Assembly: GCA_964441695.1 (NCBI GenBank)
Contig: CAYYKO010000002.1
Span: 1-57,345 of the forward strand
DNA length: 57,345 nt
DNA from: an uncultured Ruminococcus sp.
GTDB lineage: Bacteria; Bacillota; Clostridia; Oscillospirales; CAG-272
Direction: 5' to 3'
The notes beneath the pieces are model-generated. The model was not told the DNA's origin, made no database searches, and saw only the letters and a program-made list of their open reading frames with translations. A program made the translations under genes and the position numbers. The number at the start of each line of letters is the position of its first letter. The stretch's first letter is position 1. Below, one piece after another: positions 13,184 to 39,621 of the stretch.

Positions 13184-13248
13184 TTGTCTCTCCGTGCCGC
13201 CCTTTCGGCGAGCCTTGCTTTAATTTTTCCGCTGCAATAAAACGACTC

Positions 13249-13287: not shown

Positions 13288-13302
13288 AAATTATTTTGTC
13301 AC

Positions 13303-14736
13303 TCAGAGCATTGAGCTATACAGCTTAACGTATTTCTCGGCGGATGCATTCCACGAGAAGTCCACCTTCATGACGCGCCGTCTGAGCGCAGCCCACTTCT
13401 GCTTCTTTCTGTATATCTCGAGGGCGTACTCGATGACCGCCATCATGTCGTGCGCGTTATAATTTGCAAACGAGAAGCCGTTGCCCTCGCCGGTAAATTC
13501 GTTGTACGGCTTTATCGTGTCGTAGAGTCCTCCCGTTTCGCGAACGATCGGGACCGTGCCGTAGCGCGAGGCTATCATCTGCGACAGTCCGCACGGCTCG
13601 CTCTTTGAAGGCATGAGGAATATATCGCCGCCGGCGTAGAATTTCTTCGACAGCGCCTTATTGTACTCGAGGCGCACCGCAACGCGACCGGGGTGGTCAG
13701 CCGCCGCGCGGAGGAAAAAGTCCTCATATTCGCACTCACCCGTGCCGAGCACTGCAAAGGAGGCGTCCGTGTGCTCGAGAATATCGTAAAGCACACATCT
13801 CACAAGCTCAAAGCCCTTATGCCCCGCAAGTCGCGATACCATAACGATGAGCGGCTTTTTCGGGTCGGGGTCGAGTCCGCATATCTCGCACAGCTCCGCC
13901 TTGTCGCGTGCCTTGCCCGCAATTTTGTCTGCGCTGTAGCACTCGGCGATATCGCAGTCGTGCTCGGGATTGTAGTACTCGATATCGATACCGTTCGTAA
14001 TTCCGGTAAGCTTGTCGCGGCTGTCACGCAGGATGTGGTAAAGCCCGTGCGAATAATATTCCGTAAGGATCTCCGAGGCGTAGCGCTCGCTGACCGTGCT
14101 TACCATATCGGAGCAGGTAACAGCGCCCTTGAGAAGGTTGATGCATCCGTCATATTCTACCACAGAGCGATCCGTTTCGTCAAGGTCGAATACGTCGCCG
14201 AGAATGCCGAGGTCGTACTTTCCCTGATATTCGATATTATGTATCGTAAACAGCGTCCGTACATTGCAATACGGCTCGATGCCCGCAAGGCGGCGCTTCA
14301 GGTAAATTACGGCAAGCGCACTCTGCCAGTCGTTGGCATGCATAACGTCCGGGACGAAGCCGACTGTCGCCATCAGGTGCAGCACAGCCTTTCCGAAGTA
14401 AGCGAAGCGTTCTCCGTCGTCGTACTGTCCGTAGAGCATACGGCGGGCAAAATAGTACTCGTTGTCAATGAAGTACACGGTCACGCCGTCGCGCTCCGTC
14501 TTCCATATTCCGCAGTAGAGTCTGCGCCAGGAAAGTCTCAGCTCTCCCTCGGAAACACGCTCGAAGCTGTCGTCCATCTTTTCCTTTATCGCGGGATACA
14601 TGGGGATAACGACGCGGACATCCGCCTCTCCTCCGGTTGCACGGCGCACCGCGGCGGGAAGTGAGCCGATAACATCGGCAAGACCGCCCGTCGATACGAA
14701 CGGCAATGCCTCCGAGGCTACGTATAATATTTTCAT
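13303..14736 (-). CDS. glgA: Glycogen synthase (ADP-glucose type)
   Basis: 477 aa. MKILYVASEALPFVSTGGLADV... (KxGGL-type motif) and a GT5 C-terminal domain. Confidence 0.93.
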   Translation of the reverse strand: MKILYVASEALPFVSTGGLADVIGSLPAAVRRATGGEADVRVVIPMYPAIKEKMDDSFERVSEGELRLSWRRLYCGIWKTERDGVTVYFIDNEYYFARRMLYGQYDDGERFAYFGKAVLHLMATVGFVPDVMHANDWQSALAVIYLKRRLAGIEPYCNVRTLFTIHNIEYQGKYDLGILGDVFDLDETDRSVVEYDGCINLLKGAVTCSDMVSTVSERYASEILTEYYSHGLYHILRDSRDKLTGITNGIDIEYYNPEHDCDIAECYSADKIAGKARDKAELCEICGLDPDPKKPLIVMVSRLAGHKGFELVRCVLYDILEHTDASFAVLGTGECEYEDFFLRAAADHPGRVAVRLEYNKALSKKFYAGGDIFLMPSKSEPCGLSQMIASRYGTVPIVRETGGLYDTIKPYNEFTGEGNGFSFANYNAHDMMAVIEYALEIYRKKQKWAALRRRVMKVDFSWNASAEKYVKLYSSML

Positions 14737-24073: not shown

Positions 24074-26203
24074 TCAGTGCTCGTTCTGCTCTATCACCAT
24101 TTGCTGCCACTCGCGGTCAAGCGTTACAAAGCGTGCATTCCATCCGGAGACGCGCACCGAAAGCGTTTCGTAGTTTTCGGGATGCGCCTGCGCCTCACGA
24201 AGCACTGCCGCGTCGACAACGTCGGGCTGCATGAAAAAGCCTCCGAGCGCGACAAAGCCGCGTATCAGTCCACACAGTGCCGAAAGTCCCGCCTCGCCCT
24301 CGACGTTCGACGGCAGGAGCTTTATGTCAAGCGCCGCGCCATTTGCGATCTTTTCAAGGTCGATCTTGCAGTACGAACGTATCTCGGCAGTCGCGCCGGT
24401 CTTATCCGTGTTCGGTGTCGGGGAGCAGTTTGCCGCCAGAATCTCTCCCGCGCGTCTGCCGTGCGGGCACGCGAGTCTCTGCGGAGACCACACAAGCTGA
24501 CGGCCGAACGTGCTGACTCCCGCGGGGAAACGGTAGCCGCTTCTGCCGTTATAGCTTTGGCAAATATCGGCGAAATCCGAGAGCATTCTCACAGCTATCG
24601 CATCAACCTCGTCGTTATCGTTTCCGTAATAATCGTAGTTTTTAAGCGCGTACTGTCTGAGAGCTTCCTCGCCCTCCCAGTTGTTGCGAAGTATCTTCAT
24701 AAGCTCGGGAAGAGTCAGCTTCTTCTCATCGTACACAAGCTTCTTTATCGCGTAAAGGCTGTTGACCGTGTCGGCAAGTCCGCCGATATGAGGTGAAATG
24801 AGATTATAAACAGGTCCGCCCTCGAGGTATGAGAGCCCCTTTTCGATGCATCCCTCCTCAAAGATCGAAACTACCGTGCACGGTGTACGCTCGATCCATT
24901 TCGAGTTTTCCGCGCAGTCGCCCATGACAGCAAAAAGCTCATCGTACACATGGTACTTTTCATCGACTCGCTCGCGCAGACCCTTTACGTATTCGCAGTA
25001 AAGCTCCTCAAAGGTATCAAAGCTTACATCGTCTTCATAGCCGCCGAGCGTTTTCTGCTGCAATACCTGAAGGGCGTCAAAGGGATGATAGGAGAAGAAG
25101 GTCTTTCCGGGGATCTGCACCTCCCAGCAGCCGTCGTTTGCGAATTTTCTCGCCTCGCGCTCGTCGTAGCCATCTCGCACAAGCGCGCGGATGATAGTTT
25201 CCTCATTATACACGGCAAGCGTGCCGCCGCCGTAGCGCATGACCTCTGCCACACGGCGGATGAGCTTTTCATCTGTCTTCGAATTCACGCGCACCGTCGT
25301 CGGGAAATCGCTGATGCCGAGCTCCTCGATTACGTCGAGGACAAGATATGTCACCTCGTTTGTGACCTCGTTGCCGTCTTCATCGATTCCCGCAAGCAGG
25401 AGATTTTGATAATGCTGTGCGTCACCGCTGCCTATATCCTCTCCGTTTATCCACTCACAGCCCTTGATAAAGAAATGCGCCAAAATTTCGCGTGCCTCGT
25501 CGAGCGTCAGCTTTCCGCTCTCAAGATCGCGCTTCAGATAATCTCCGAGCAGGTAGTCAATACGTCCGATGCCCGGCCAGTTTCCCGTGAGACGGATAAA
25601 CGCAAACGTAAACCAAATGCTCTGCACCGCCTCATAGAAGGATGTGGGCGTCTCAAACGGGACGCGCTTCAGGTTTTCGTAATTTGCGCGATATTCGGGA
25701 AGCTCGCGGAGTGCGTCGAGGTACCGTCCGTGCCAAACCTCAAAGGCATCGATACAGTTCAGACAGCTTTTTGCAAAAGCTTCCTTTTCGCTCCCGCGAT
25801 ATTTTTCGTATGCACGACGCGACTTTTCCCTTATATATCCGACACCGTGCTTTAATACCGTCTCGAAATCGGCAGTCAGGTGGCTCTGGCTCTCGCACAG
25901 GCGTGAGCCTTTATAATCTGCCGGCACGGAATGACTTATCGCCTTGCCGAGCGTCGCCGCTCCGCTCAGCTTCTCCCCCTCACAAATGCGAATCGGTGCT
26001 TCCTTTGCGATCTTCATTATCGCGATGTCGTACTTTTCTATCTTTGAGAGCGAGTCAAAATTCGGTATGTCGTCGAGGACAACGGCACTGCACTTCAAGG
26101 TGTCCTTGCCGTATTTTCTGCCGAGCGAGTCATGTGCAAAGCGTCGTGTCGCCTCTGACAGTCTCACCGGTCTTTTGCCTCCGTTTTGAGTGTAAAACTC
26201 CAT
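24074..26203 (-). CDS. Glycyl radical enzyme, PFL2/dehydratase-like family, unusually short (709 aa)
   Basis: C-terminal glycyl-radical motif ...TLSVRVSGWNARFVTL... (Gly codon 24143-24145). Thiyl loop ...FANDGCWEVQIPG... (GCxE pattern). Start placed at ATG 26203 (MEFYTQNGG...), 5 nt after GGAGGTG. Confidence 0.88.
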   Translation of the reverse strand: MEFYTQNGGKRPVRLSEATRRFAHDSLGRKYGKDTLKCSAVVLDDIPNFDSLSKIEKYDIAIMKIAKEAPIRICEGEKLSGAATLGKAISHSVPADYKGSRLCESQSHLTADFETVLKHGVGYIREKSRRAYEKYRGSEKEAFAKSCLNCIDAFEVWHGRYLDALRELPEYRANYENLKRVPFETPTSFYEAVQSIWFTFAFIRLTGNWPGIGRIDYLLGDYLKRDLESGKLTLDEAREILAHFFIKGCEWINGEDIGSGDAQHYQNLLLAGIDEDGNEVTNEVTYLVLDVIEELGISDFPTTVRVNSKTDEKLIRRVAEVMRYGGGTLAVYNEETIIRALVRDGYDEREARKFANDGCWEVQIPGKTFFSYHPFDALQVLQQKTLGGYEDDVSFDTFEELYCEYVKGLRERVDEKYHVYDELFAVMGDCAENSKWIERTPCTVVSIFEEGCIEKGLSYLEGGPVYNLISPHIGGLADTVNSLYAIKKLVYDEKKLTLPELMKILRNNWEGEEALRQYALKNYDYYGNDNDEVDAIAVRMLSDFADICQSYNGRSGYRFPAGVSTFGRQLVWSPQRLACPHGRRAGEILAANCSPTPNTDKTGATAEIRSYCKIDLEKIANGAALDIKLLPSNVEGEAGLSALCGLIRGFVALGGFFMQPDVVDAAVLREAQAHPENYETLSVRVSGWNARFVTLDREWQQMVIEQNEH

Positions 26204-26224
26204 GTTATCACCTCCGATGATATG

Positions 26225-26253
26225 ATTATACAGTACAAAGCTATTAAATTCAA
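26225..26253 (-). promoter_or_regulatory. sigma-A promoter for the glycyl radical enzyme gene
   Basis: Minus strand: TTGAAT (26253-26248), 17-nt spacer, TATAAT (26230-26225). Confidence 0.55.
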
Positions 26254-26282
26254 TTGACATTTCCGCACAATACATGTATAAT
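26254..26282 (+). promoter_or_regulatory. sigma-A promoter for the AraC regulator, back to back with the GRE promoter
   Basis: Consensus TTGACA (26254-26259), 17-nt spacer, TATAAT (26277-26282). Confidence 0.6.
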
Positions 26283-26300
26283 ACTATTGAGGTGAGTCAT

Positions 26301-27092
26301 TTGAAAATAAGCAGCGTAAATATACGCTATTTTAAGAAGGACGGCTTTTACTCCGTTCCGAACGAAGGCGTCACTCATGTGAAGGTACTGCCCTGCCTTT
26401 CCGTCGTTCAGTCGCTCGAGGGACATTACGACATCACGCTCGGCGGAGGGGATAAAATGCAAACGACGGACGGCGGATTTTTCATTGCTCCGGCAGGCGT
26501 GCAGCAAACAATAACGCACCACATCAACGAAAAAAGCGGCAGGATGAGCTGCCGCTGGATATTTATCGACGCGCGGATAAACCGCGAGCTTTCGCCCGAC
26601 TCGCTTTATACCTTTCCGACGGTGATAAACGGCGACGAGCGGCATGAGCTGAACTCGATTTTCGAGAGATTATTCGCGACCGACGACGCATTTGAAAATC
26701 ACGCGGACTGCTGTCGGCTTCTCGGATACCTGACAAAGCTCGGAAAAGAAGCGAAGGAGGGCTCTCACGGCGGGCTGAAAACGGCTCTCTCGTATATATC
26801 CGAGCACTACACCGAGCACATCACCGTAAAAATTCTCGCAGAGGCTTCGAATATGTCGGAATCAAATTTTTACGCGCTCTTCAGAAGGCACGTCGGCACG
26901 TCGCCGATAGCATATCTGAACAGCTACCGTCTTTCCGTTGCAGCCGATGCACTGACACAAAGCACGCAGAGCATCAAGGAGATAAGCTTCTCCGTCGGTA
27001 TCGACGACTCGATGTATTTCAGTCGGCTCTTTCGCAAAACCTACGGTGTGTCGCCGAGTGAGTACCGCGCACTGTACAAAAGCCGCACGTGA
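26301..27092 (+). CDS. AraC family transcriptional regulator
   Basis: Cupin-like N-terminus and a C-terminal double HTH: ...ILAEASNMSESNFYALFRRHVGTSPIAYLNSYRLSVAADAL...IKEISFSVGIDDSMYFSRLFRKTYGVSPSEYR.... Start moved to TTG 26301 (GAGGTG 6 nt upstream) because ATG 26274 lies within the promoter spacer. Confidence 0.85.
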   Translation: MKISSVNIRYFKKDGFYSVPNEGVTHVKVLPCLSVVQSLEGHYDITLGGGDKMQTTDGGFFIAPAGVQQTITHHINEKSGRMSCRWIFIDARINRELSPDSLYTFPTVINGDERHELNSIFERLFATDDAFENHADCCRLLGYLTKLGKEAKEGSHGGLKTALSYISEHYTEHITVKILAEASNMSESNFYALFRRHVGTSPIAYLNSYRLSVAADALTQSTQSIKEISFSVGIDDSMYFSRLFRKTYGVSPSEYRALYKSRT

Positions 27093-27186: not shown

Positions 27187-28536
27187 TCACTGAATGTCTG
27201 TAAATTCTCTGATATCAGCACCGACAGAATTGACAACAGCATCCTTCGGAGTCGTGCATACGGTATTTCCCTCGGAATCGATGATAGCAAACACATCATC
27301 CTCGATCTCCGAATACGCGTATCCGTCGGCATAGTAGTTCGAGATATCGTAAAGTCCCTTGTCTGAAAGCACGAAGACGATCTCGAGCTTCGAGTTTATG
27401 ACAACCTTCTCGAACTCCTTACGCTCACAGTCCGTTCTGCCAAGATCCGCCCACACGATATCCACGGTCTTGCCGTCCTCATCAAGGTATACGGGAGAAA
27501 CGCAGAACATTCTGTCGGCGATCATAACAGGCTCGGTGCATGCAAAGCCTCTGAGATCGGTGCTTGTCATCTGCAAGACCTGTTCGCCGGACTCGTTGTA
27601 ATAAGTGAAGCTTTTCTTACCGCTGCGCGCCCACACAGATTCGGTGAAGTCGATACGCATCTCGGTTTTCGCTTCAGAGACCTTGTTCCACGAGGTGTCG
27701 TAAAAGGCACCGTCGTAATATGCGAGTCCGTTGTCGCCGAAGCCGTATCTCGACCACTTATTCGGGTTGTATTCGGGAATGGTTATCACCCAGTTACCCT
27801 CGGCGTCGATGTAGCCGGCTTTCTTTTCGTTCTTATCCTCTATGGCGCAAAGTCCGTGAGTTATCGCATTCTGACCGAGGAAGATGCCCTCCTTCGGCTC
27901 AACGACCCATTCAAAATCACTGTTTAACAATCCGTAAGCCTTATTAAAGCGTCCGGCGACCGCATAGCCCTCGTCGCTGAATTCGTTAAGGTAATCGCAG
28001 CCCTCGATTATAACGTGCTCAAAGCCGTTTTCGCCTTTGTGGAAGTAGCCCTTCTCCTCTCCGTCGGCGCCGTCGAGCACTATCGTGGCAATGCCGCTTG
28101 AGGAAAACCTTCCGACGTCCTTGTAAACGGTGTCTGTCACATACTCGCCGTTCAGATCGATGCATCTCCAGCCCTCGCCCTTCTTAAAAACAAAGGCTAC
28201 TCCGTCGGGGCCGAAGCTTTTCACAGCATCGTAAACGGGTTCGATGTACCACTCGCCGTTCATATTCATGTAGCCGGCACCTCCTCCATCTTTAAGGTGT
28301 ACCGGAACGATTCCGAACTGGAACAGCGCGCCCTTCATGTATGTTCCGGACGCCGTGGGCTTTTCGTCCGTGCTCTCGCCCTCGCCCTCGCCGTTCTCCA
28401 CGCTTTCGGTCTGTCGGTTGTCGCCTGCATTTGCCGAGTCCTCCGCGTCGTCAGAGCCGTTCGAGCCGCAAGCGGCAAGCGACAGTGCCATCGCTCCGAC
28501 CAGAAGCCACGACACGATTGTCTTTCCGAGCTTCAT
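27187..28536 (-). CDS. Lipoprotein with WG-containing (KWG-like) beta-propeller repeats
   Basis: Signal peptide with lipobox ...GAMALSLAAC|GS.... An acidic low-complexity linker, then repeated ...G.W..I...G..V....Y..V... units (for example AGYIDAEGNWVITIPEY, GEGWRCIDLNGEYVTDTVYKDV). Confidence 0.8.
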   Translation of the reverse strand: MKLGKTIVSWLLVGAMALSLAACGSNGSDDAEDSANAGDNRQTESVENGEGEGESTDEKPTASGTYMKGALFQFGIVPVHLKDGGGAGYMNMNGEWYIEPVYDAVKSFGPDGVAFVFKKGEGWRCIDLNGEYVTDTVYKDVGRFSSSGIATIVLDGADGEEKGYFHKGENGFEHVIIEGCDYLNEFSDEGYAVAGRFNKAYGLLNSDFEWVVEPKEGIFLGQNAITHGLCAIEDKNEKKAGYIDAEGNWVITIPEYNPNKWSRYGFGDNGLAYYDGAFYDTSWNKVSEAKTEMRIDFTESVWARSGKKSFTYYNESGEQVLQMTSTDLRGFACTEPVMIADRMFCVSPVYLDEDGKTVDIVWADLGRTDCERKEFEKVVINSKLEIVFVLSDKGLYDISNYYADGYAYSEIEDDVFAIIDSEGNTVCTTPKDAVVNSVGADIREFTDIQ

Positions 28537-28733: not shown

Positions 28734-28761
28734 CGCCGTTTTTGCAGGCTACTTAAATATC

Positions 28762-28810
28762 AAAATAACGGGTATTCGGAATATCTCCGAATACCCGTTA
28801 TTTTCGTTTT
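28762..28810. terminator. Bidirectional rho-independent terminator
   Basis: Perfect 17-bp stem AATAACGGGTATTCGGA / TCCGAATACCCGTTATT, 5-nt loop, with A-run and T-run flanks. It lies just downstream of the minus-strand fusion gene. Confidence 0.8.
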
Positions 28811-28824
28811 CGGCACAGCCGCTC

Positions 28825-31323
28825 TTACTTGTTGAGTCCAAGCCTCTCTGCGGCATCCTCGCGCATTTTGTACTTGAGAATTTTGCCCGCCGCGTTCATC
28901 GGGAACGACTTTACGAATTCAACGTATCTCGGCACCTTATGACGCGCCATGTGAGAGCGAATGTACTCCTTCATCTCGTCGGCGGTCATCTCCTCGCCCT
29001 CCTTCAGGATAATGCACGCCATGATCTCCTCGCCGTACTGCTTGTCGGGCACGCCGATGACCTGAACGTCCTTGACCTTGGGGCAGGTGTAGATGAATTC
29101 CTCGATCTCCTTCGGATAGATATTCTCTCCTCCGCGGATGATCATATCCTTGAGTCGACCCGTGATGCGGTAATTGCCGTCGGCGTCGCGTGCGGCAAGG
29201 TCTCCCGTGTGGAGCCAGCCCTCGCTGTCGATGGCAGCCGCCGTGGCGGAGGGCATCTTGTAGTAGCCCTTCATTATATTATATCCGCGTGCAACGAACT
29301 CGCCGTTTACTCCGTCGGGACAATCCTCTCCCGTCTCGGGGTCGACGATCTTGCACTCGACATTCGCGAACGCGCTTCCGACAGTCTCCGTTCTCACGTC
29401 AAGCGACTCGTAATAGCTGCTCATCGTGCAGCCGGGGCTCGCCTCCGTCTGACCGTATACCGAGACGATCTGCTTCATGTTCATCGTCTCCGTAGCCTTT
29501 TTCATCAGCTCCGCGGGGCAGTTCGCGCCCGCCATGATACCCGTGCGAATGTGCGAGAAATCTGTCTTTTCAAAGTCGGGATGCTGCATCATCGCAATAA
29601 ACATGGTCGGCACGCCGTTGAAGCACGTGATCCTCTCCTGATTTATGCAGGCGAGAGCCGGCTTCGGTGAGAAATACGGCAGCGGGCACATCGTAGCACC
29701 GTGCGTCATTGATGCTGTCATCGAGAGCACCATTCCGAAGCAGTGGAACATAGGCACCTGTATCATCATACGGTCGGCGGTCGAGAGATCCATGCGGTCT
29801 CCGATGTACTTACCGTTGTTTACGACATTGTAGTGGGTGAGCATGACTCCCTTGGGGAAGCCCGTCGTGCCTGAGGTGTACTGCATATTGCAGACGTCGT
29901 TGCGGTCAACGGCGGCAGCCATGCGGCGAAGCTCGGATACGGGGACGTCCTCGTAGCGCTCCTCAGCCTGCTTCCAGGTGAGGCAGCCCTTCTGCTTGAA
30001 GCCGACCGTGATAATATTGCGTAAGAACGGCAGGCGGCGGCAGTGGAGCGGATGACCCGCGCGTGCGGTAAGCGTCTCGGGGCAAAGCTCGGCAACTATC
30101 GCGCCGTAGTCTGTCTCCTTCGTGCCCTGAGTCATGATAAGCGTGTGCGTATCGGACTGGCGGAGCAGATACTCGAGCTCGTGTATCTTGTATGCGGTAT
30201 TGACGGTAACGAGCACCGCGCCGATCTTTACCGTTGCCCAGAACGAGATGTACCACTGCGGCACGTTTGACGCCCATACTGCAACGTGGTCTCCCGCCTT
30301 GACGCCGAGAGAGATGAGGCTTCGTGCGAAGCGGTCGACGTCGTCGCGGAACTCGCTGTAGGTACGTGTGTAATCGAGAGTCGTATATTTGAAGGCGTAC
30401 TGATCGGGGAAGTCCTCGACCATGCGGTCAAGCACCTCTGAGAAGGTAAGGTCGATAAGGTCGTCCTTCTTCCAGACAAAGCGACCGGTGTGCGTCTCGT
30501 TGTAGTAGAAGCTCTTTTCGTTCTGAGAGGGGTCGCCGAACTGTCTCATGTAATTCTGGAACTGCGTGAGCACGGTCTCCATGTCGTCAAGCTCCTCGCA
30601 CCATGCGGGATCCCAGACGAGCGATACAAAGCCGTCGTAATTGACGCTTCTGAGCGCGGACACGATCTCGCGCACGGGCAGCTCGCCTTCGCCGGCGAGG
30701 CGATATTCGGCAACGCCGCCGGTCGCGTCGATATCGCTGAAGTGCACGAGCCTGACGTATGCGCCGAGGTTCTTTATTATGACCTCGGGATCCTTCTCGG
30801 CGAAATATGCCTCGGAAACATTCCAAAGTGCGCCGACGCTGTCGCTTGCGAAGCGGTCAAGCGTCTCGCAAAGGCGTGCGCTGTCGCGATAAACACCGGA
30901 GGTTTCGAGCAGGAGCGTAACACCAAGCTCCTCGGCGCGCGGGAGCACCCTCTCGATAAATGCCTCAACGCGCTCGACTCCGTCCTCGTCGTCACCGCAG
31001 CAGCTTCTGAAGCGGATGTACGGAATATGCAGAAAGCGTGCTATCTCGAAGCATCTTTCAGTCTCCTCCACAGCCGTATCGGTCGTGCCCTCGGCTGAAA
31101 TATCGCAGATCGTATCGATGCAGGGAACGGTAAGCTCGCGGTCGTAGAGCATACGCTGCGTCGACGCCGCGGAATAATCGTGAAAGGCTCCGTCACGGTC
31201 GGTAAAGAGAGCGCCGTTTACGTTATGCAGCTCGATTCCGTCGAACTTGAGGTCGTGAGCGATATTGCAAAAATCCTCAAAGCTGCAATCATGCCAGCCC
31301 TTTGTTGAAAAAGAAAGCTTCAT
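28825..31323 (-). CDS. Fusion protein: N-terminal xylose-isomerase-like TIM barrel (sugar-phosphate isomerase/epimerase family) plus C-terminal AMP-forming acyl-CoA synthetase/ligase
   Basis: 832 aa. Residues 1 to about 270 (MKLSFSTKGWHDCSFEDFCNIAHDLKFDGIELHNV...LLLETSG...VRLVHFSD...) form an AP-endonuclease-2/XylA-like TIM barrel. From about residue 285 come the ANL-superfamily motifs: ...QYTSGTTGFPKGVMLTHYN..., ...YGQTE..., ...GWLHTGDLA...RLKDMIIRGGENIYP..., ...AAGKILK.... Confidence 0.85.
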   Translation of the reverse strand: MKLSFSTKGWHDCSFEDFCNIAHDLKFDGIELHNVNGALFTDRDGAFHDYSAASTQRMLYDRELTVPCIDTICDISAEGTTDTAVEETERCFEIARFLHIPYIRFRSCCGDDEDGVERVEAFIERVLPRAEELGVTLLLETSGVYRDSARLCETLDRFASDSVGALWNVSEAYFAEKDPEVIIKNLGAYVRLVHFSDIDATGGVAEYRLAGEGELPVREIVSALRSVNYDGFVSLVWDPAWCEELDDMETVLTQFQNYMRQFGDPSQNEKSFYYNETHTGRFVWKKDDLIDLTFSEVLDRMVEDFPDQYAFKYTTLDYTRTYSEFRDDVDRFARSLISLGVKAGDHVAVWASNVPQWYISFWATVKIGAVLVTVNTAYKIHELEYLLRQSDTHTLIMTQGTKETDYGAIVAELCPETLTARAGHPLHCRRLPFLRNIITVGFKQKGCLTWKQAEERYEDVPVSELRRMAAAVDRNDVCNMQYTSGTTGFPKGVMLTHYNVVNNGKYIGDRMDLSTADRMMIQVPMFHCFGMVLSMTASMTHGATMCPLPYFSPKPALACINQERITCFNGVPTMFIAMMQHPDFEKTDFSHIRTGIMAGANCPAELMKKATETMNMKQIVSVYGQTEASPGCTMSSYYESLDVRTETVGSAFANVECKIVDPETGEDCPDGVNGEFVARGYNIMKGYYKMPSATAAAIDSEGWLHTGDLAARDADGNYRITGRLKDMIIRGGENIYPKEIEEFIYTCPKVKDVQVIGVPDKQYGEEIMACIILKEGEEMTADEMKEYIRSHMARHKVPRYVEFVKSFPMNAAGKILKYKMREDAAERLGLNK

Positions 31324-31341: not shown

Positions 31342-32727
31342 TTACGCGTTGTGCTCCTCGTAAACTATCTTGTTTACGGCGTTAATGTATGCTCTGATGC
31401 TTGCGCCGACGATGTCCGTGGACACGCCGTTTCCGGAATACAGTCTGCCCTCGAAGCGAAGCTTTACGACTGCGTTTCCGATAGCCTCCTGACCCTCCGT
31501 TACGGAGCGGATCATAAAGTCGTCAAGCTCGTAGCTGCTTCCTGTTACCTGACCTATCGCGCGGAAGGCGGCGTCGATCGGACCGTCACCGAGAGAGACG
31601 CCGACAAGCGTGCGTCCGTCGCGCTCGAGCGTGATCTGCGCGCTTGAATTGATAATATTGCCGTTGTTTACAACGTAGCTGACAAGCTTATAGGAATCGG
31701 GCACCTGGAGCGCTACCGAGGCGACTATCGCCTCAAGCTCCGCAGAGCCGACTCTCTTCTTCTCGCCGACGCGTCCGATCTCCTCATGAACGCGGGCGCA
31801 GTCCTCATCGGACAGATCGTAGCCGAGTCGTGCGACAGCAGCGGCAACACTTTCAACGGTGTCGGAGGCGTCAAGGCTGACTCCGTCGTTTTCGTCTGCC
31901 GACGGCGCGCCGACTGTCTTCTCGCTCTTTGCGCTTCCGGTAATGCGGCGAAGCTGCTCGGTTATTCTGTGAAGCTCTGTATAAGTAATGTCGGAGGAGA
32001 TGCCGAAGCTCTCTCCGCAGTTTTTGACAAGTGTCGCGAAGGTCTCGGTCTGCGCGCTCTCGCCGTCAACGGCGCACTTGACAAACGATACGCCGCGGCA
32101 AGCCGCCATCGTGAGGGAGGCTACGGCAAGACCGTTTTTGTCGGAGCAGGACGCACCGACGGGAACACCGGCACAGGAGGCAACGCTCTCTGTGAAGGCT
32201 GCAAATGCGTCGGGGAGCATTTCGGCGGCGCTGTCGCAAACGCTGACATAAGATGCTCCGGCGTCAACTGCCGTGCGGATAGCATCGTCAAGGAAGCTCC
32301 TTTCGGCTCTTGTCGCATCAACGGCGCAGAACTCAACCTCGGCGACGTGAGACACTGCAAGCTTTACCGACTTTTCGATCCACTCAAGCATCGCGGCGGG
32401 CTTCTTCATCATGAAGTACTCCATTCCGACAGACGAGGTGGGGAGTGCGATTTTAATTCTCGCGCGGGGCGCCGAGCTGAGTGCGGCAGCGGCATTTTCG
32501 ATGCTCTCGGCGGAGCTTCCCGCAGCGACGGAAAGTGTGCTGTTTTTTACAAAGGATGACGCTGTACGCACCATCAGTATATCACTTTTGGGGTTGGCGA
32601 TCTCGGGCAGCTCGATAATATCGCACCTCATGCGATCGAGCTGGCGGATGATCTCGAGCTTCTCCTTAAAGCTGAAGCTTCTGTCCTCACGGCAAAGCGT
32701 GGCATCGGCAATTTTGACCTTGTTCAT
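31342..32727 (-). CDS. 2-isopropylmalate-synthase-like protein with degenerate active site (HMGL-like barrel plus LeuA_dimer regulatory domain)
   Basis: 461 aa, collinear with LeuA. It has DATLCREDR where LeuA has DTTLRDGEQ, and ...GASCSDKNGLAVAS... where LeuA has ...HCHDDLGMAVAN... (both His replaced by Ser). The C-terminal ...GDGPIDAAFRAI...AIGNAVVKLRFEGRLYSGNGVSTDIVGASIRAYINAVNK... retains the LeuA allosteric domain. Confidence 0.8.
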   Translation of the reverse strand: MNKVKIADATLCREDRSFSFKEKLEIIRQLDRMRCDIIELPEIANPKSDILMVRTASSFVKNSTLSVAAGSSAESIENAAAALSSAPRARIKIALPTSSVGMEYFMMKKPAAMLEWIEKSVKLAVSHVAEVEFCAVDATRAERSFLDDAIRTAVDAGASYVSVCDSAAEMLPDAFAAFTESVASCAGVPVGASCSDKNGLAVASLTMAACRGVSFVKCAVDGESAQTETFATLVKNCGESFGISSDITYTELHRITEQLRRITGSAKSEKTVGAPSADENDGVSLDASDTVESVAAAVARLGYDLSDEDCARVHEEIGRVGEKKRVGSAELEAIVASVALQVPDSYKLVSYVVNNGNIINSSAQITLERDGRTLVGVSLGDGPIDAAFRAIGQVTGSSYELDDFMIRSVTEGQEAIGNAVVKLRFEGRLYSGNGVSTDIVGASIRAYINAVNKIVYEEHNA

Positions 32728-32774: not shown

Positions 32775-33055
32775 CGAAAAAGAAAAGCCCTGAAATCGGA
32801 TAATCCGACTTCAGGGACGAAATGCTTCGCGGTACCACCCTGTTTACCGTCAAGAAAAAACGGTCAACTCGTCAGAGCTCAGGCAAGCTCCCGGTCATGA
32901 TAACGGGACCGTCCGTAGCCGTTTACTGTAATTCGACGACTCTGCTCCGAAATGAGACTTCACATCCACCGCCAATATCGGCTCGCACCTGCCGCCGACT
33001 CTCTGAAATGTGGCAAAGCGGAGGAATAATTCCATCAACGCATTTGAATAAGTTG
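32775..33055 (-). promoter_or_regulatory. T-box riboswitch leader, probable Leu (CUC) specifier
   Basis: Minus-strand elements in order: UGCGUUGAUGG (GA/K-turn), AGAGAG bulge, GGUGCGA distal loop, GAAGU-CUC-A specifier loop (CUC = plus-strand 32954-32956) closing on UUUCGGAGCA, T-box sequence AACAGGGUGGUACCGCG (core at 32828-32840), and a terminator stem at 32788-32816 plus U-run. Confidence 0.8.
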
Positions 33056-33060
33056 CCGTT

Positions 33061-33089
33061 ATTATACCACCGCTCGCCCGACTTGTCAA
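33061..33089 (-). promoter_or_regulatory. Consensus sigma-A promoter for the T-box operon
   Basis: Minus strand: TTGACA (33089-33084), 17-nt spacer, TATAAT (33066-33061), with TGg extended -10. Confidence 0.65.
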
Positions 33090-33122
33090 GCTTTTTCAAG
33101 AAAAAAACGCATTTTCTTCGTA

Positions 33123-33163
33123 TAAAAAATGCGGGAGCCTCGCGTCATTGCCGAGGCTCCCGC
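33123..33163 (-). terminator. Rho-independent terminator
   Basis: 12-bp stem GCGGGAGCCTCG / CGAGGCTCCCGC, followed on the minus strand by TTTTTT. It isolates the upstream gene from the T-box operon. Confidence 0.75.
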
Positions 33164-33170
33164 ACATTTT

Positions 33171-34373
33171 TTACTTTCTGTCTATTCTGAACAGACGCAT
33201 CTGTCCGGCATAGAGCGCAATGTTTTCCTTACCCGAGTCGGAGCTGTCGCCGATACCCGCTCCGTTGCAGATAACCTCGCGAACGGCACACCTTGCAGGG
33301 TCGAACTCGATGTTCACCGAGCCGTGGATCTTCGTCATCGCGTTAACGGCGCAGAGGTATTCCTGACCGTTGTCATCCTCGAAGAAGCTGACGAGAATGT
33401 CGTCCCAGACCGCGCTGACCTTGACAAGGTCGTGGTCTCCCTCCCGGAAGCGCGGAAAAACATCGGTGATGTTGTCGCCGAGCATATACGTGCTCTTTCT
33501 GTGAAGCGTCGGCATTATCTCTCCGTAATGATCAGCAAAACGGCGCTGTGCGCGGAGCATATCGTAGTATGTATCGGTCTTGTTACCGTACTCGTCGATA
33601 GGCGAGCCGAAATATTCGTTACCCATCATGCGGTCGTAGAAGCGGAACCAGATATTACCGCGGCAGCCGCAGGCTGCGGGAACGGTTATCTGCCAGAGAA
33701 GCTCGTGGTAATTCGGCTTTCTGTATGCGTAATGTGCGCTCGAGAGTGTGTTCGCCCAAATATCGAGACCCGCCTTCTCGGCTGCGCCGACGACTACCTT
33801 AAGCGAATAAATATCGTCTCTGAGAGTCTTCTCGTTTATCATGCTTCCGTAAAGGTCGAGGCTTGCAAAGCTTGCGCCCTTCTCGCGGATATACTTGAAC
33901 CACTCCTCAAGCGTGCGACCGCCGAGAGCATCCTTTGAAAGCACGGGGGTGTCTCCGCAAAGGTTAACGTATGCCTTCAGCTCGGGAGCTACACGGTGGT
34001 GTATCTCAAAGCACTTGGCTGTCGCCTCAAGCGACTCCTTATCGCTCGGCTCGTCGCCGATGAAGAAGCCGTAAAGCGCGGGATGACCCTTAAGAGGCTC
34101 GTATACCGTGCGAAGATTCTGCTCAAGCTGCTCCTCGCTGATATGTCTGAGATCTCCGTAGGAAAGACCGGCGCAATTGACGATCATCTTCACACCGAGC
34201 TCCGCTGCGCGGTCAAGGAAGGGCTTTACCGTGCGAACGCCCTCCTCGCTGCACGGGATCGAGGGGGTCATCGGAACTGTCATTCCGCATTCCTTCCACA
34301 CCTCGACCTCGTCGGGAGTGAAATCCGACGTGGGGTTATATACCCACATTGAAAAGGGATATTTTTCTGCCAT
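33171..34373 (-). CDS. Hypothetical protein, possibly a glycoside-hydrolase-like TIM barrel (400 aa)
   Basis: Start placed at ATG 34373 (MAEKYPFSMW...) after GGAGAA. Alternating beta/alpha pattern with ...YGFFIGDEPS... and ...LDIWANT... loosely recalls GH42/GH35-type barrels. No firm family assignment. Confidence 0.65.
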   Translation of the reverse strand: MAEKYPFSMWVYNPTSDFTPDEVEVWKECGMTVPMTPSIPCSEEGVRTVKPFLDRAAELGVKMIVNCAGLSYGDLRHISEEQLEQNLRTVYEPLKGHPALYGFFIGDEPSDKESLEATAKCFEIHHRVAPELKAYVNLCGDTPVLSKDALGGRTLEEWFKYIREKGASFASLDLYGSMINEKTLRDDIYSLKVVVGAAEKAGLDIWANTLSSAHYAYRKPNYHELLWQITVPAACGCRGNIWFRFYDRMMGNEYFGSPIDEYGNKTDTYYDMLRAQRRFADHYGEIMPTLHRKSTYMLGDNITDVFPRFREGDHDLVKVSAVWDDILVSFFEDDNGQEYLCAVNAMTKIHGSVNIEFDPARCAVREVICNGAGIGDSSDSGKENIALYAGQMRLFRIDRK

Positions 34374-34437
34374 AATATTTCTCCGTTCTCCGCCGTTCGG
34401 CGGCAATTGATTACTAAGCTCAAGTGTCTAAGGCAGC

Positions 34438-35247
34438 TTACGCCTTTGCAAGCTCATCGCTGCGTCTGAGGCATGCCTTCATGCAGTCCTCGACCGTCTT
34501 GTCGAAATCGGAGGCATTGAGGGAGTCGAGCGCCGCCTCCGTCGTTCCCTTCTTCGAGGTAACTCTCTCGCGAAGGGTCGCAGGGGAAATTCCGTTTTGA
34601 TCGATGACCTGCGCCGTTCCGACGAGCGTCTGCACCGCAAACGCCTCTGCCGCGTCCTCGGGAATTCCGAGCGTGACCGCCGCGCGAGCCATAGACTCGA
34701 CCATGCGGCAAATATACGCCGGTCCGCTTCCGGAAAGCGCCGTATATGCCGATATCATGTCCTCCTCGACGCGTCTGATTATTCCGAGCGGGGCAAAAAC
34801 AGCCTCGGCAAGAGCCGCCTCAGCGTCACCCGCGGCGCGTCCGAGCGCGTACACGGTAGCCGAGCGTCCGACGGACAGAGGCATATTCGGCATAAAGCGA
34901 ACGACACGTGCGCCGCCGAGCTCGTCCTCGAGACGTGCGGTCGATATTCCCGCCATTATCGAAAAATAAAGCTTGTCGGAGGTAAGATACTCTCCGTACA
35001 TGCTAAGTGCCTCGGGAAGCACCTGCGGCTTGATTCCGAAGACAACGGTGTCGCACTCCGCAAGGCTCTCCGCCGTGCGGCAGGCAATTCCGTGGCTCTC
35101 CGCCGCGCTTTTCGCGACCTCCGGGAAGGCGTCGTTTATGCAGTATATATTCTCCGGCGCAATAAGTCCCGCACCGAGAATTCCGTCTATCATTGCGCCC
35201 GCCATGAAGCCGACTCCGATAAAGGCAAGCTTTCCTTCAATCTTCAT
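34438..35247 (-). CDS. proC: Pyrroline-5-carboxylate reductase
   Basis: 269 aa. NAD(P)-binding ...LAFIGVGFMAGAMI... and the C-terminal ...VTSKKGTTEAAL... ProC signature. Confidence 0.92.
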   Translation of the reverse strand: MKIEGKLAFIGVGFMAGAMIDGILGAGLIAPENIYCINDAFPEVAKSAAESHGIACRTAESLAECDTVVFGIKPQVLPEALSMYGEYLTSDKLYFSIMAGISTARLEDELGGARVVRFMPNMPLSVGRSATVYALGRAAGDAEAALAEAVFAPLGIIRRVEEDMISAYTALSGSGPAYICRMVESMARAAVTLGIPEDAAEAFAVQTLVGTAQVIDQNGISPATLRERVTSKKGTTEAALDSLNASDFDKTVEDCMKACLRRSDELAKA

Positions 35248-35257
35248 TTCCCGTGCC

Positions 35258-36505
35258 TCACTTTCTTATCTGTCCCGTGCCCTCGACGATGAACTTGTAC
35301 GAGGTTATCTCACGAAGCCCGAGCGGACCGCGCGCGTGCATTTTCTGTGTTGAAATACCGATCTCCGCGCCGAAGCCGTATTCGAAGCCGTCGGTAAAGC
35401 GTGTCGAGGCATTGACATTCACAGCCGCCGCGTCGACCTCGCGAATAAACCTGTCAGCCGCCGCGCGGTCGTTTGTGATTATCGCCTCGGTATGTCCCGT
35501 GCCGTAGCGTCTGATATGCGCAATGGCATCGTCTATGCTGTCGACGAGCTTCACCGCCATATCGAGCGAAAGAAATTCACTCGCAAGCTCACTCTCTGTG
35601 ACCGGAACGGCATAGGGGACAAGGGCACAAAGCCTCGGGCAGCCGTGTACGGTAACGCCTGCGGCGCGAAGTGAGTCGCAAAGCCTTACCGCAAGCTCGG
35701 GGCGGGACGCGTGAACGAGCAGAGTCTCAGCGGCGTTGCAGACAGCGGGGCGCTGAGTCTTTGCGTTGATGAGAATATTCTCAGCCATCTCGGCATCCGC
35801 GTCGCGGTCAACGTAAATGTGGCAGTTTCCGACGCCCGTCTCGAGCACGGGCACGCGGCAATTCTCAACGACGCGTCTGATGAGTCCCGCGCCTCCGCGA
35901 GGTATCATAAGGTCAATGTAGCCGCGAAGCGACATCATTTCGTCGACCACGTCGTGCGAGCGTCCATCGACCAGCGACACCGCGTCGCACGGAAGGCTGC
36001 TCTCGGCTAGCGCGTCGCGCATTATTTCGGTAAGCTTTTTGTTCGATTCAAGGGCGCTCGAGCTTCCGCGAAGCATGACGGCACTTCCCGCCTTCAGCGA
36101 AAGCGAGGCGGCATCCACCGTAACGTTCGGGCGCGCCTCGTATATCATTCCGATAACGCCGAGCGGCACGCGAACACGCTTTATCACAAGTCCGTTCGGT
36201 CTTGTCGTCTCCTCGATGACCTCACCGACGGGGTCGGGGAGAGCGACGACCTGACGAACACCGAGCGCAATGTCGGCAATTCTCTTTTCGTTAAGCGTCA
36301 GTCTGTCAATGAGTGCCGCAGAGGTGCCGCTCGCGACAGCTGCGTCAACGTCTCTGCCGTTTGCCTCAAGTATCTCGTCAACACGCGACTCGAGCGCGTC
36401 GGCAATAAGCATGAGTGCGCGATTTTTCTCGTCTGTCGACGCACACGCAAGTGCGCCGGCTGCCGTCTTCGCGCTCTGCGCCTGCTTTACAAGTATCTCG
36501 TTCAT
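35258..36505 (-). CDS. proA: Glutamate-5-semialdehyde dehydrogenase
   Basis: 415 aa. ...YEARPNVTVDA..., catalytic ...VCNAAETLLVH..., and ...HTEAIIT...NASTRFTDG.... Confidence 0.93.
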   Translation of the reverse strand: MNEILVKQAQSAKTAAGALACASTDEKNRALMLIADALESRVDEILEANGRDVDAAVASGTSAALIDRLTLNEKRIADIALGVRQVVALPDPVGEVIEETTRPNGLVIKRVRVPLGVIGMIYEARPNVTVDAASLSLKAGSAVMLRGSSSALESNKKLTEIMRDALAESSLPCDAVSLVDGRSHDVVDEMMSLRGYIDLMIPRGGAGLIRRVVENCRVPVLETGVGNCHIYVDRDADAEMAENILINAKTQRPAVCNAAETLLVHASRPELAVRLCDSLRAAGVTVHGCPRLCALVPYAVPVTESELASEFLSLDMAVKLVDSIDDAIAHIRRYGTGHTEAIITNDRAAADRFIREVDAAAVNVNASTRFTDGFEYGFGAEIGISTQKMHARGPLGLREITSYKFIVEGTGQIRK

Positions 36506-36538
36506 ATTAAAAAGCTTCCTTTCGCTCGTATATCGTCC

Positions 36539-37624
36539 TTACAGCGTCGTAAGAACAAGGTCGTCCTTTCTTATAACGACACAGCTCTTACTGTCGCCCG
36601 TGTTTACCATGTCGCATATCTCGTTTTTCGAGAATGACGCAATTCCCCGTCCGAGGCACACGTGATCTCCTGCCGTCAGTATACGAACGACATCTCCGCC
36701 TGCGAAGTCGCCCTCCGCCGCGGTAACTCCCGCGCAAAGCAGGCTTTTTTCGTGATGTGCCACAGCCTCGGCAGCTCCTCGGTCAACGTAAATATTTCCC
36801 TTCGACGGCGCATAGAACGCCATCCACTGGAGGCGTGTTCTGAGGCTTCCGTCCGCCTTAAAGAGCGTGCCCTTGGCGCTTCCCGCGACCGCGTTGATTA
36901 TAACATTTTCATCCTTTGACGAGCAGATGAATACGGGAACTCCGGCGCGTGTCGCAAGGGACGCTCCGCGAAGCTTCGTTATCATGCCGCCGGTGCCGTT
37001 TTTCGTTCCCGCACCTCCCGCGTAGCGCTCGATCTCCGGGGTGATCCGCTCGACTGTCGGAATATGGCGAGCCGTGGGGTCGCTTGCGGGGTTCGCGGTA
37101 TAAAGCCCGTCGGTATCCGTGAGCAGTATGAGCATATCCGCATGAAGCATTGCCGCGACCTGCGAGGAGAGCGTGTCGTTGTCTCCGAGCCTCAGCTCCT
37201 CGACGGCTATGGTGTCGTTCTCGTTGATTATCGGCACAGCCCCGCGGCTGAGAAGTATCTCGAGCGCCGCAAAGGCGTTTTTGTATCTCCGCTTGTCCGT
37301 GAAGTCTCCTCGTGTGAGAAGTATCTGAGCGCAAACGTATCCGCGCTCCGAGAAGAATCTCTCATACTCCTCCATGAGCAGTCCCTGACCGACGGCTGCC
37401 GACGCCTGCTTTGCGGCAACGGAGGTCGGACGTGTCGTGTAGCCGAGTGCGCGGAAGCCCGCGGCAATCGAGCCCGAGGTAACTATAACGCAGTCGTGAC
37501 CTGCATCACGGACGTCTGCGACCTGGCGCACGATAGTCTGTATCTTTTCACGCGAAATATCGCCGTTTTTCCCGGTAAGCGAGCTGCTTCCGATCTTGAT
37601 TATGTAAAGCTTCTTATTATTCAT
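36539..37624 (-). CDS. proB: Glutamate 5-kinase (with PUA domain)
   Basis: 361 aa. ...IIKIGSSSLT..., ...VIVTSGSIAAG..., ...IINENDT...GDNDTLS..., and a PUA-like C-terminus. Confidence 0.93.
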   Translation of the reverse strand: MNNKKLYIIKIGSSSLTGKNGDISREKIQTIVRQVADVRDAGHDCVIVTSGSIAAGFRALGYTTRPTSVAAKQASAAVGQGLLMEEYERFFSERGYVCAQILLTRGDFTDKRRYKNAFAALEILLSRGAVPIINENDTIAVEELRLGDNDTLSSQVAAMLHADMLILLTDTDGLYTANPASDPTARHIPTVERITPEIERYAGGAGTKNGTGGMITKLRGASLATRAGVPVFICSSKDENVIINAVAGSAKGTLFKADGSLRTRLQWMAFYAPSKGNIYVDRGAAEAVAHHEKSLLCAGVTAAEGDFAGGDVVRILTAGDHVCLGRGIASFSKNEICDMVNTGDSKSCVVIRKDDLVLTTL

Positions 37625-37819: not shown

Positions 37820-38545
37820 ATGAAGTGGCTTGAGCACTACAGACTCGGCGCTGCCGAGACAGATATAAACAACATCGCCTCCGCGTCCGCGGTCATGCGT
37901 TATCTTCAGGACTGCGCGAACTGTCATCTTGCGGCGGTGCGTCCCTCCTACGACGAGCTTTTCGAGAGAGGGCTCGCCTTCGTTTTGAGCCGCATGTCGG
38001 TGGTTTTCCACGGTGAGTTTCACACGCACGACAGCTTCGACTGCGAAACGTGGGCGTCGGGCTCCAGGGGCGTGACCTTCAACCGCTGCTACCGCATAAC
38101 GAAGGATGGAGCTACAGTCGTTGAGGCGTCCTCAGCATGGGCTCTGCTTGACATTGCCCGCGGTCGCCCCTGCCGTGTCTCGGATTCGGGCGCCGATTAC
38201 CGCGATGAGGAGCCGCTTGAGCTCAACATGCCGACGCGCTTCAGAATTCCGAGCACGCCCGAGCCCGTAAAGCTCGGCGAGAGGCTTGTCGAATACGCGG
38301 ACTGCGACATCAACGGTCACATGAATAATGCCAAATACCCCGACATTCTCTGCGGCTGCACGGGAGACATGAAGGGGCGCAGGCTTTGGCGAATGAATAT
38401 TAATTTCCTGAACGAAGCACCGCTCGGCGAAAGGCTCACCGTGTACCGCACGGAGCTTGACGGCGTGCATTACCTCCGCACGCTGCGCGGGGACGGGCTC
38501 ACGAACGTCGAGGCGGCTCTGTGCTTTAAGGACACAGAAAAATGA
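37820..38545 (+). CDS. Acyl-ACP thioesterase (double hot-dog fold)
   Basis: 241 aa. ...[27 protein letters not shown]...[16 protein letters not shown]... and a second half ...[13 protein letters not shown]... fit the FatA/B-like bacterial thioesterase family. Confidence 0.8.
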
Positions 38546-39621
38546 GCATGATAAATTCAACTCTTTGCTACATAGAAAAAGACAGCTCGTACCTGATGCT
38601 GCACCGCGTCAAGAAGGAGCACGACTTGAATCGTGACAAGTGGATAGGCATCGGCGGGCATTTCGAGTTCGGCGAGTCACCCGAGGACTGCATTCGCCGT
38701 GAGATACGCGAGGAAACCGCCCTTTCGGCAATTACGCTTGCGTTTCGCGGCATCGTGACCTTCGTTTACGGCGACGAGTGCGAATACATGCACCTTTTCA
38801 CCTGCGACGATTTTCAAGGAGAGCTCTGCGACTGCGACGAGGGCGAGCTTGAATGGGTCGAAAGAAGCAGGCTACGCACTCTTGAGCTGTGGGAGGGAGA
38901 CCATATATTTCTCGACCTTATCGAGGACAGGGCGCAGCCGTTTTTCTCGCTGAAGCTCGTGTACGCCGACGGAGGCACGCTCACCGAGGCTGTGCTTGAC
39001 GGCGTGTCACTGCCTCTGCCCTACGCCGCAAAGGCACGCGCTCACAGCACAAGTGAAAGGACAGGCAAAAAATGCGCCTCCGGCAGCACCGCGAAGGACA
39101 GTGTCGGCGTGAGCGCACAGAAAAGCGGCACACCGAAAAGCAGCGCCGACGAGAACACTTCGAAAATCAGTGCCGCAACCTCGCCTAAAAGCGTCAGCAT
39201 CTACACCGACGGCTCGTGCCGGAAGAATCCGGGTCCCGGCGGCTGGGGCGCGATACTTGTTGCAGACGGGCGGGAGCTTGAGCTGTGCGGCGGCTGTGCC
39301 GACACGACAAACAACCGCATGGAGCTGACCGCCGTCATCACCGCGCTGTCGAAATTAAAAAAGCCGTGCCGCGTTGAGCTCACGACGGACTCGCGCTACG
39401 TCTGTGACGGCATTACGAAGGGCTGGGCGCGTTCTTGGAAGAAGAAGGGCTGGAAAAAGGGCGATGGCTCGCCCGCGCTGAATCCCGATCTTTGGGAGCA
39501 GCTGCTCGAGCTGTGCGAGCTGCACAGCGTAAGCTTCAATTGGGTCAAGGGACACGCGGGGCATCCGTACAACGAGCGCTGCGATGCTCTCGCGCAGACC
39601 GAGTCGGGTAAATATCTGTGA
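38542..39621 (+). CDS. rnhA: Fusion protein: N-terminal Nudix hydrolase (MutT/8-oxo-dGTPase-like) plus C-terminal ribonuclease HI
   Basis: Nudix box [27 protein letters not shown] Ser/Thr/Ala/Lys-rich linker of about 55 aa follows. The RNase HI core is ...[20 protein letters not shown]...[11 protein letters not shown]...TDSRYV...[18 protein letters not shown].... ATGA overlap with the upstream gene. Confidence 0.85.

Follow-up and report, generated by a model that had tools for sequence, protein, structure and literature searches.

In a stretch of 57,345 nucleotides from an uncultured Ruminococcus sp. (contig CAYYKO010000002.1 of GenBank assembly GCA_964441695.1; we call this whole stretch the window), the second gene of an operon with a leucine T-box encodes an 832-residue protein that joins a xylose-isomerase-like TIM barrel to an adenylating enzyme of the ANL superfamily. 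We believe, with somewhat more confidence than doubt, that this fusion is an isovalerate-CoA ligase that is induced by leucine starvation and whose product goes on to leucine by reductive carboxylation followed by transamination. A preliminary description of this DNA had raised the idea of isovalerate-to-leucine salvage. Comparison with relatives strengthens it substantially, in that the ligase is associated with a 2-oxoacid:ferredoxin oxidoreductase (OFOR) and/or IlvE in 36 of 80 related loci, including three loci (L041, L045, and L047) in which the oxidoreductase lies within the Leu T-box operon, and that the VOR type of oxidoreductase is found behind leucine or isoleucine T-boxes. This association is absent from the window itself, so the idea stands on its relatives and not on its own surroundings.

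In the route that we propose, uncharged tRNA-Leu would lead to read-through at the T-box and turn the operon on. The ANL part would be the working enzyme and would convert exogenous isovalerate, ATP, and CoA to isovaleryl-CoA. A VOR-type oxidoreductase, encoded elsewhere in the source genome, would convert isovaleryl-CoA to 4-methyl-2-oxopentanoate by reductive carboxylation, and IlvE would transaminate 4-methyl-2-oxopentanoate to leucine. The product of gene 1, which we call pseudo-LeuA, would keep leucine binding and gate the ligase, with the TIM domain of the fusion as a docking or effector site.

Since the 1960s, labelling work has shown that leucine, isoleucine, and valine can be made from branched short-chain acids. 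The carboxylation of isovalerate to leucine in ruminococci and rumen contents is credited to Allison and co-workers (as cited in PMC7356843), and the reductive carboxylation of 2-methylbutyrate to isoleucine has been assumed for Methanobrevibacter ruminantium (PMC2812497). The chemistry that we propose (acid activation, reductive carboxylation, and transamination) is the same as in the isovalerate carboxylation route, and so is the habitat, as most of the related loci are from metagenome-assembled genomes (MAGs) from ruminants or other guts. On the other hand, that route was defined by labelling, while our link to it is purely genomic. Full-text literature searching turned up no gene assignment for the route or for its activation step.

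The operon lies on the minus strand of the window, in the order promoter, T-box, gene 1, fusion, and terminator. Its features are as follows:

33061..33089, minus strand: sigma-70-type promoter, TTGACA-17-TATAAT, with 12/12 consensus matches, TG-extended, just 5' of the T-box
32810..33047, minus strand: T-box leader (RF00230), matched by the Rfam covariance model over positions 1-219 (the full model)
32954..32956, minus strand: specifier codon CUC (Leu), from the cmscan alignment
32788..32816, minus strand: intrinsic terminator of the T-box, a 13-bp stem and then CTTTTCTTTT
31342..32727, minus strand: gene 1, encoding a predicted 461-residue LeuA-fold pseudoenzyme with HMGL-like and LeuA_dimer domains
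31933..32727, minus strand: degenerate barrel of gene 1, about residues 1-265
31345..31752, minus strand: LeuA_dimer regulatory domain of gene 1, residues 326-461
28825..31323, minus strand, stop codon included: gene 2, encoding the 832-residue TIM-barrel/ANL fusion
30538..31323, minus strand: xylose-isomerase-like TIM barrel domain, residues 1-262, with ligand positions E140, N168, H194, and V236
30454..30537, minus strand: conserved interdomain linker, residues 263-290, with N275, G280, and K286 conserved
28828..30453, minus strand: adenylating (acyl-CoA synthetase) part of the ANL type, residues 291-832; motifs A3, A5, A7, and A8 and the Lys of A10 are intact
28755..28801, minus strand: terminator at the end of the operon, a 17-bp hairpin (-25.8 kcal/mol) with a U-rich tail

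The T-box leader scores 106.4 bits (gathering score, 93). From the specifier loop, GAAGuCUCA, we read the specifier as the leucine codon CUC, followed by A. The conserved T-box sequence AGGGUGGUACCGCG is present, and a U-tract terminator lies 3' of it. The end of gene 1 and the ATG of the fusion gene are 18 nt apart. The fusion gene itself has a GGAGGAG ribosome-binding site and stays open for 832 codons. All three of its Pfam domains score above their cutoffs: AP_endonuc_2 (PF01261) at residues 21-237 (68.6 bits versus 31.1), AMP-binding (PF00501) at residues 299-688 (323.6 bits versus 29.9), and AMP-binding_C (PF13193) at residues 739-814 (69.6 bits versus 24.5). The core motifs are at residues 482-492 (A3, YTSGTTGFPKG), 623-627 (A5, YGQTE), 705-710 (A7, HTGDLA), 722-737 (the A8 hinge, GRLKDMIIRGGENIYP), and 808-817 (A10, PMNAAGKILK, which holds the terminal catalytic Lys). 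Judging by these domains and motifs, the ANL part is a complete member of its superfamily. In these respects the preliminary description was right: it had placed the gene second in a leucine T-box operon, had read it as a TIM barrel and an ANL enzyme fused in a single open reading frame (ORF), had quoted SGTTGFPKG, YGQTE, GDLA...RxKD, and a terminal Lys, and had proposed the domain search that we ran.

Homology was rejected as a guide to the substrate, because the matches in PDB and NCBIfam span fatty-acyl, feruloyl, malonyl, oxalyl, and coumaroyl ligases and are uninformative. The best NCBIfam match is NF009233 (PRK12583, fatty acid CoA ligase family), which aligns over profile positions 14-556 of 558 with 672.7 bits, under its cutoff of 832. 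Like the ANL acyl-CoA synthetases with the nearest structures (8WEU and 8WEV), the fusion has the complete two-domain ANL fold; relative to PRK12583-type ligases, it adds an N-terminal TIM barrel, leucine T-box control, and the pseudo-LeuA partner. ANL ligases are familiar enzymes, and what is new here is the architecture, the partner, and the regulatory setting of one of them. The preliminary description knew of no function for this architecture, and neither do the sources of the sequences, which use only generic names (AMP-binding protein, AMP-dependent synthetase, or fatty-acyl-CoA synthase). Our full-text literature searching found no gene-level description of it either, which does not prove that there is none.

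The fusion is widespread. A scan of one genome per species gave at least 600 candidate stretches and at least 596 confirmed relatives. The 80 related loci that we analyzed are the best 80 of at least 596 confirmed; they are near-full-length matches with identities of 63-79%, and most come from MAGs of the ruminant or human gut. We extracted 79 full-length orthologues of the fusion and 70 orthologues of gene 1 for alignment. The preliminary description had suggested such a census; across these Clostridia, the fusion is conserved together with the T-box and the LeuA-like gene. A T-box-like leader lies directly 5' of pseudo-LeuA in 58 of 63 related loci, and in the 53 leaders whose specifiers were read, these are all CUC or CUG at the same position. 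There is no T-box directly upstream of pseudo-LeuA in L037, L052, or L063, and none in L059 even at E 0.001. Among the fusion orthologues, mean identity is 80% for the ANL part and 50% for the TIM part.

To describe the neighborhood, we clustered all ORFs of the 80 loci and scanned them with Pfam and NCBIfam. The recurrent layout is c6 (a conserved protein described below), the delta, alpha, beta, and gamma subunits of an OFOR, IlvE, the leucine T-box, pseudo-LeuA, the fusion, and an Amidohydro_2 protein. The alpha subunit exceeds the NCBIfam cutoff for VorB (545 bits versus 399), the delta subunit is a ferredoxin-type protein of 68 residues with 4Fe-4S motifs, and IlvE exceeds the cutoff of the NCBIfam BCAT equivalog (498 bits versus 307). 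In the 36 loci with an association, the OFOR and/or ilvE lies within 6 kb of the operon, and the genes for VOR alpha, PFOR-like proteins, and ilvE are always on the same strand as the operon. If we consider just the 34 loci with full flanks, 19 have an OFOR.

The order of these genes varies among loci, which argues that the linkage to VOR and IlvE is functional rather than accidental. For example, L059 has pseudo-LeuA first, followed by the fusion, ilvE, c6, delta, alpha, beta, and gamma, with gaps of under 45 nt. In L037 and L041, the genes for VOR, ilvE, pseudo-LeuA, the fusion, and the amidohydrolase are contiguous, and in L041 a CUC T-box precedes the whole set from c6 and VOR through ilvE and the LeuA-like gene to the fusion. 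In L045 (6869-10450) and L047 (8539-12078), a single-chain, PFOR-like 2-oxoacid:ferredoxin oxidoreductase of 1193 residues is encoded directly 3' of the fusion and behind the leucine T-box; this looks like a non-orthologous displacement of the four-subunit VOR. As for c6, it is a conserved protein of about 200 residues that is found in L059 (5720-6394) and in 21 other loci, always 5' of VOR delta. It has just weak P-loop matches (CbiA and NUBPL/ParA-type, E ~2e-3) and may be an ATPase that matures or carries Fe-S clusters for the oxidoreductase. The Amidohydro_2 protein (PF04909, about 268 residues, with an intact HxH motif) is encoded 3' of the fusion in 50 of the 80 loci (for example, L009 5402-6208), often with overlapping stop and start codons. 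It had no match in NCBIfam.

A parallel module seems to exist for isoleucine. A protein of 770-790 residues with HTH_XRE, cupin, and ANL domains, which we call ANL794, is encoded near the operon in eight loci by ORF clustering and in eleven by tblastn with its N-terminal part. In 8 of 8 loci it is preceded by a T-box-like leader with the isoleucine specifier AUC. In L056, L071, L075, and L079, Rfam reports this T-box above the gathering score, and in L060, L062, L070, and L073, we read the leader and its specifier from the sequence alone. The ANL794 operon runs into c6 and VOR in L056 (9644-14321), L071 (6971-12804), and L073 (about 9400-13991). The best NCBIfam match of ANL794 is MbcS (431 bits, under the cutoff of 850), and its operon is probably the counterpart of the leucine module that takes 2-methylbutyrate to isoleucine. 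Purified MbcS (methylbutyryl-CoA synthetase) from S. aureus activates 2-methylbutyrate and isobutyrate, which it prefers, and acts poorly on isovalerate (PMC10026030); this would leave room for a dedicated isovalerate ligase. As we propose for the fusion, MbcS attaches CoA to short branched-chain acids that are scavenged from outside the cell, but its ANL subfamily is a different one, its role is in lipid synthesis, and no T-box controls it.

Gene 1 had been called LeuA-like, which is correct for its fold and its LeuA_dimer domain but not if it is meant as a synthase. Pfam finds an HMGL-like domain (88 bits) and a LeuA_dimer domain (103.7 bits). In Foldseek, its AlphaFold model (pLDDT 84) matches the LeuA barrels 3rmj, 3ewb, and 3eeg at ~2 A rmsd and a target-normalised TM of 0.8-0.9, and the whole model matches leucine-bound LeuA from M. 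tuberculosis. The barrel and the LeuA_dimer regulatory domain are common to gene 1 and LeuA (3RMJ, 1SR9, and 3FIG), but the catalytic and metal residues that are kept in LeuA are replaced and variable in gene 1. Relative to Neisseria LeuA (3RMJ), DTTLRDGEQ has become DATLCREDRS, the metal-binding HCH has become SCS, and the His of subdomain I is absent; the positions of the substrate-binding Arg, the metal Asp, His-x-His, the catalytic Glu, and His are all replaced. Across the 70 orthologues, the RDGEQ and HxH positions are variable, not merely changed. The best score against an NCBIfam LeuA equivalog is 244.4 bits, as compared to a cutoff of 532, and gene 1 falls under all of the LeuA cutoffs. 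A genuine LeuA is ruled out by the catalytic residues and by these cutoffs, and from its residues we read the protein as a LeuA-fold pseudoenzyme. Its best-conserved part is the regulatory domain, with a mean identity of 67% versus 46% for the barrel. Wherever a locus extends far enough upstream, the protein is encoded directly 5' of the fusion.

Inactive or regulatory partners that gate a catalytic subunit are familiar from amino acid biosynthesis: HisZ works with HisG, and IlvN or IlvH works with acetolactate synthase (IlvB). By analogy, pseudo-LeuA may be a leucine-sensing partner that shuts the ligase off. The logic would be the same, in that a dead or regulatory partner would bind the end-product amino acid and gate the first committed enzyme.

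Several observations weigh against isovalerate salvage. No VOR, ilvE, leu/ilv, or amidohydrolase gene is present within the 57-kb window, so the link to the pathway rests on orthologous loci. Because VOR and IlvE are reversible, their co-location also fits the synthesis of acyl-CoA primers. The fusion falls under every NCBIfam cutoff, and we found no characterised member of its ANL subfamily. Neither the TIM domain nor the Amidohydro_2 protein has a part in the three-step scheme. Finally, six metagenome loci (L087-L092) encode an ANL protein and a TIM protein as adjacent separate genes, with ANL first and TIM second (for example, L090 5989-7659 and 7690-8493). These proteins share 54-57% identity with the ANL part and 25-30% identity with the TIM domain of the window's fusion, respectively, and the TIM active-site motif is intact. 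There is no T-box, LeuA-like gene, or VOR in these loci, and the neighbors are unrelated. ANL and TIM were therefore paired before they came under leucine control, and the substrate of the ancestral pair need not be isovalerate. It is mainly because of these split pairs that we call the isovalerate assignment somewhat probable and do not go further.

The function of the TIM domain is where we differ from the preliminary description, which had supposed that the barrel adds a second chemistry. The AF2 model of the domain (pLDDT 86.9) is an eight-stranded barrel, and its Foldseek matches are the Art22 isomerase, AsbF, D-tagatose 3-epimerase, UlaE, and IolI (TM ~0.75, E ~1e-13). The fold is shared with xylose-isomerase-like TIM barrels, and PF01261 is above its cutoff, but identity is just 14-20%, and two metal ligands out of four are missing from the window protein. 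We take the ligand positions, by analogy with D-tagatose 3-epimerase, to be those of E140, N168, H194, and V236; the window protein thus has the set E-N-H-V in place of the canonical E-D-H-E. E-D-H-E is kept in 34 of the 79 orthologues and E-N-H-V is found in 22, while the rest have degenerate sets such as E-Q-H-V, E-H-H-I, or K-D-H-E. More distant TIM relatives carry the intact signature LIETNG, LWD[IV]HHP, HVHxKDS, and SLEWVKRW; among them are stand-alone proteins (about 268 residues), split gene pairs, and P0197, in which TIM and ANL are fused. In the Leu-operon fusions that we examined, the HH pair of WD[IV]HHP is lost; in the window's clade the Asp and the last Glu are gone as well, and SLEWVKRW is replaced in the window protein. 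So both of the operon's TIM-type modules, in gene 1 and in the fusion, have lost catalytic residues. Since two of the four canonical metal ligands are gone, a classical isomerase or epimerase activity is unlikely in the window's clade.

Nevertheless, W10, H33, E140, W167, H194, D197, W237, and W241 are conserved, and they lie at the C-terminal strand ends, on the catalytic face. This face still seems to be constrained, whether for a ligand or for a partner. We suggest that the remodelled TIM domain would be a docking or effector-binding module and not an isomerase. In the Leu-operon loci the remodelled TIM domain co-occurs with pseudo-LeuA and the T-box, while the split pairs with an intact TIM have neither. 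This fits the docking or effector proposal but is no proof of it.

A bolder version of our proposal is possible, but we rather doubt it. A catalytically dead, leucine-binding LeuA might dock on the remodelled, dead sugar-isomerase-type TIM barrel of the fusion and thereby gate the ligase, which would be an allosteric device of a new kind, and the operon might be the missing genetic basis of the isovalerate route. Along with the operon that combines an Ile T-box, an MbcS-like ligase, and VOR, it might then represent a family of tRNA-sensed, end-product-gated systems by which gut and rumen Clostridia make amino acids from short branched acids.

What if the TIM barrel is a working enzyme after all? 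There might be a longer salvage route, in which the TIM domain (at least in the clade with E-D-H-E) and the amidohydrolase are active and make an acid from a leucine-related compound, or the ANL part might use an acid other than isovalerate. The ANL and TIM parts are found together not only in the fusion but also as neighboring genes in unrelated contexts, which suggests a genuine two-part function. That E-D-H-E is kept in over two-fifths of the orthologues, that the conserved residues are on the catalytic face, and that an amidohydrolase with an intact HxH follows the fusion in most loci would also be accounted for. But two or more ligands are absent in the window's clade and in several others, although these still have the same operon and T-box, WD[IV]HHP is gone from the Leu-operon fusions examined, and the window has no amidohydrolase. 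Nor did the contexts of stand-alone TIM relatives hint at a pathway. Overall, we think that a longer route is unlikely.

We also rejected a pairing of an AsbF-like dehydratase with an aryl-acid ligase. This lead came from what we presumed about petrobactin-type AsbF pairing, and we dropped it: AsbF is no closer than many other fold matches, the ligands have been lost, and no aromatic or siderophore-related genes recur near the operon among the ORF clusters of the 80 loci. The stand-alone TIM relatives whose gene contexts gave no functional hint are P0368, P0278, P0314, and P0353. Two of these four contexts have something in common, as P0278 and P0314 (in L083 and L085) directly follow guaB (IMP dehydrogenase). 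In Caldicellulosiruptor, the gap 3' of the stand-alone TIM gene holds minus-strand ORFs that resemble a transposase remnant, and no ANL gene.

Another explanation, which we consider quite unlikely, keeps the isovalerate-CoA ligase activity but changes its purpose: isovaleryl-CoA would be a primer for iso-branched fatty acids when leucine, from which it normally comes, is scarce. MbcS is a precedent, as S. aureus scavenges branched short acids for fatty-acid primers (PMC10026030). There is an acyl-ACP thioesterase gene at 37820-38545 of the window, though it is outside of the operon, and the oxidative direction of VOR and IlvE would also yield acyl-CoA primers. However, T-boxes respond to tRNA charging, which is a signal of amino-acid supply, and VOR or another OFOR is behind leucine or isoleucine T-boxes in L041, L045, L047, L056, L071, and L073. 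To break down a scarce amino acid upon starvation would be counterproductive. If VOR is induced by amino-acid starvation, then only the carboxylating (anabolic) direction makes sense. Also, no fab genes recur in the neighborhood among the ORF clusters of the 80 loci. These points favor the salvage of isovalerate into leucine.

Lastly, we give practically no credence to the idea that the fusion is an artefact of assembly or annotation that joins two genes, and we rejected it: the ORF is continuous, the linker (residues 263-290) is in frame in 79 of 79 orthologues from independent assemblies, with G280 and K286 invariant, and a search of 5.8 billion proteins found over 120 clusters of 828-841 residues with all three domains and 75-98% identity to the query, from NCBI, ENA, JGI, and Logan assemblies of Oscillospiraceae, Ruminococcaceae, and other Clostridia. 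The preliminary description had singled out 30480-30520 as the place where a stop or frameshift might betray two genes, and this stretch is the conserved linker.

Branched short-chain acids are required by, or beneficial to, many Clostridia of the rumen and gut, and they are used as supplements in ruminant nutrition. The operon provides a testable gene candidate for the activation of isovalerate in several hundred species, along with its leucine T-box regulator and its likely partners VOR and IlvE. If our proposal is true, it would improve metabolic reconstructions and predictions of auxotrophy for the Oscillospirales, which are largely uncultured. Current annotations are misleading: the fusion is annotated as a fatty-acyl-CoA synthase, and gene 1 is named "hypothetical protein" at NCBI and 2-isopropylmalate synthase at JGI. 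Pseudo-LeuA and the decaying TIM barrel also seem to be a case of enzymes that were recycled into non-catalytic parts.

The rest of the window includes a dcw cluster, glycogen genes, proBAC, and a tmRNA. Upstream of the operon, a terminator-like hairpin (33108-33133) separates it from the gene for a 411-residue protein (33171-34406, minus strand) with a sub-threshold match to DUF4434. This gene lies between the promoter of the T-box and the proBAC cluster (proC, proA, and proB; 34438-37624, minus strand). Immediately 3' of the operon's terminator is the gene for a predicted lipoprotein of 449 residues (27187-28536, minus strand), whose beta repeats contain WG and whose linker is acidic and of low complexity. 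Farther along, at 24074-27092, a PFL-like glycyl-radical enzyme (733 residues, minus strand) adjoins a divergent regulator of the AraC family (272 residues); we identified no gene for an activating enzyme nearby. A single 359-residue ORF at 38542-39621 (plus strand) has a NUDIX domain at its N terminus and an RNase H domain at its C terminus. The tmRNA gene (RF00023, 169 bits) is at 986-1363 on the plus strand.

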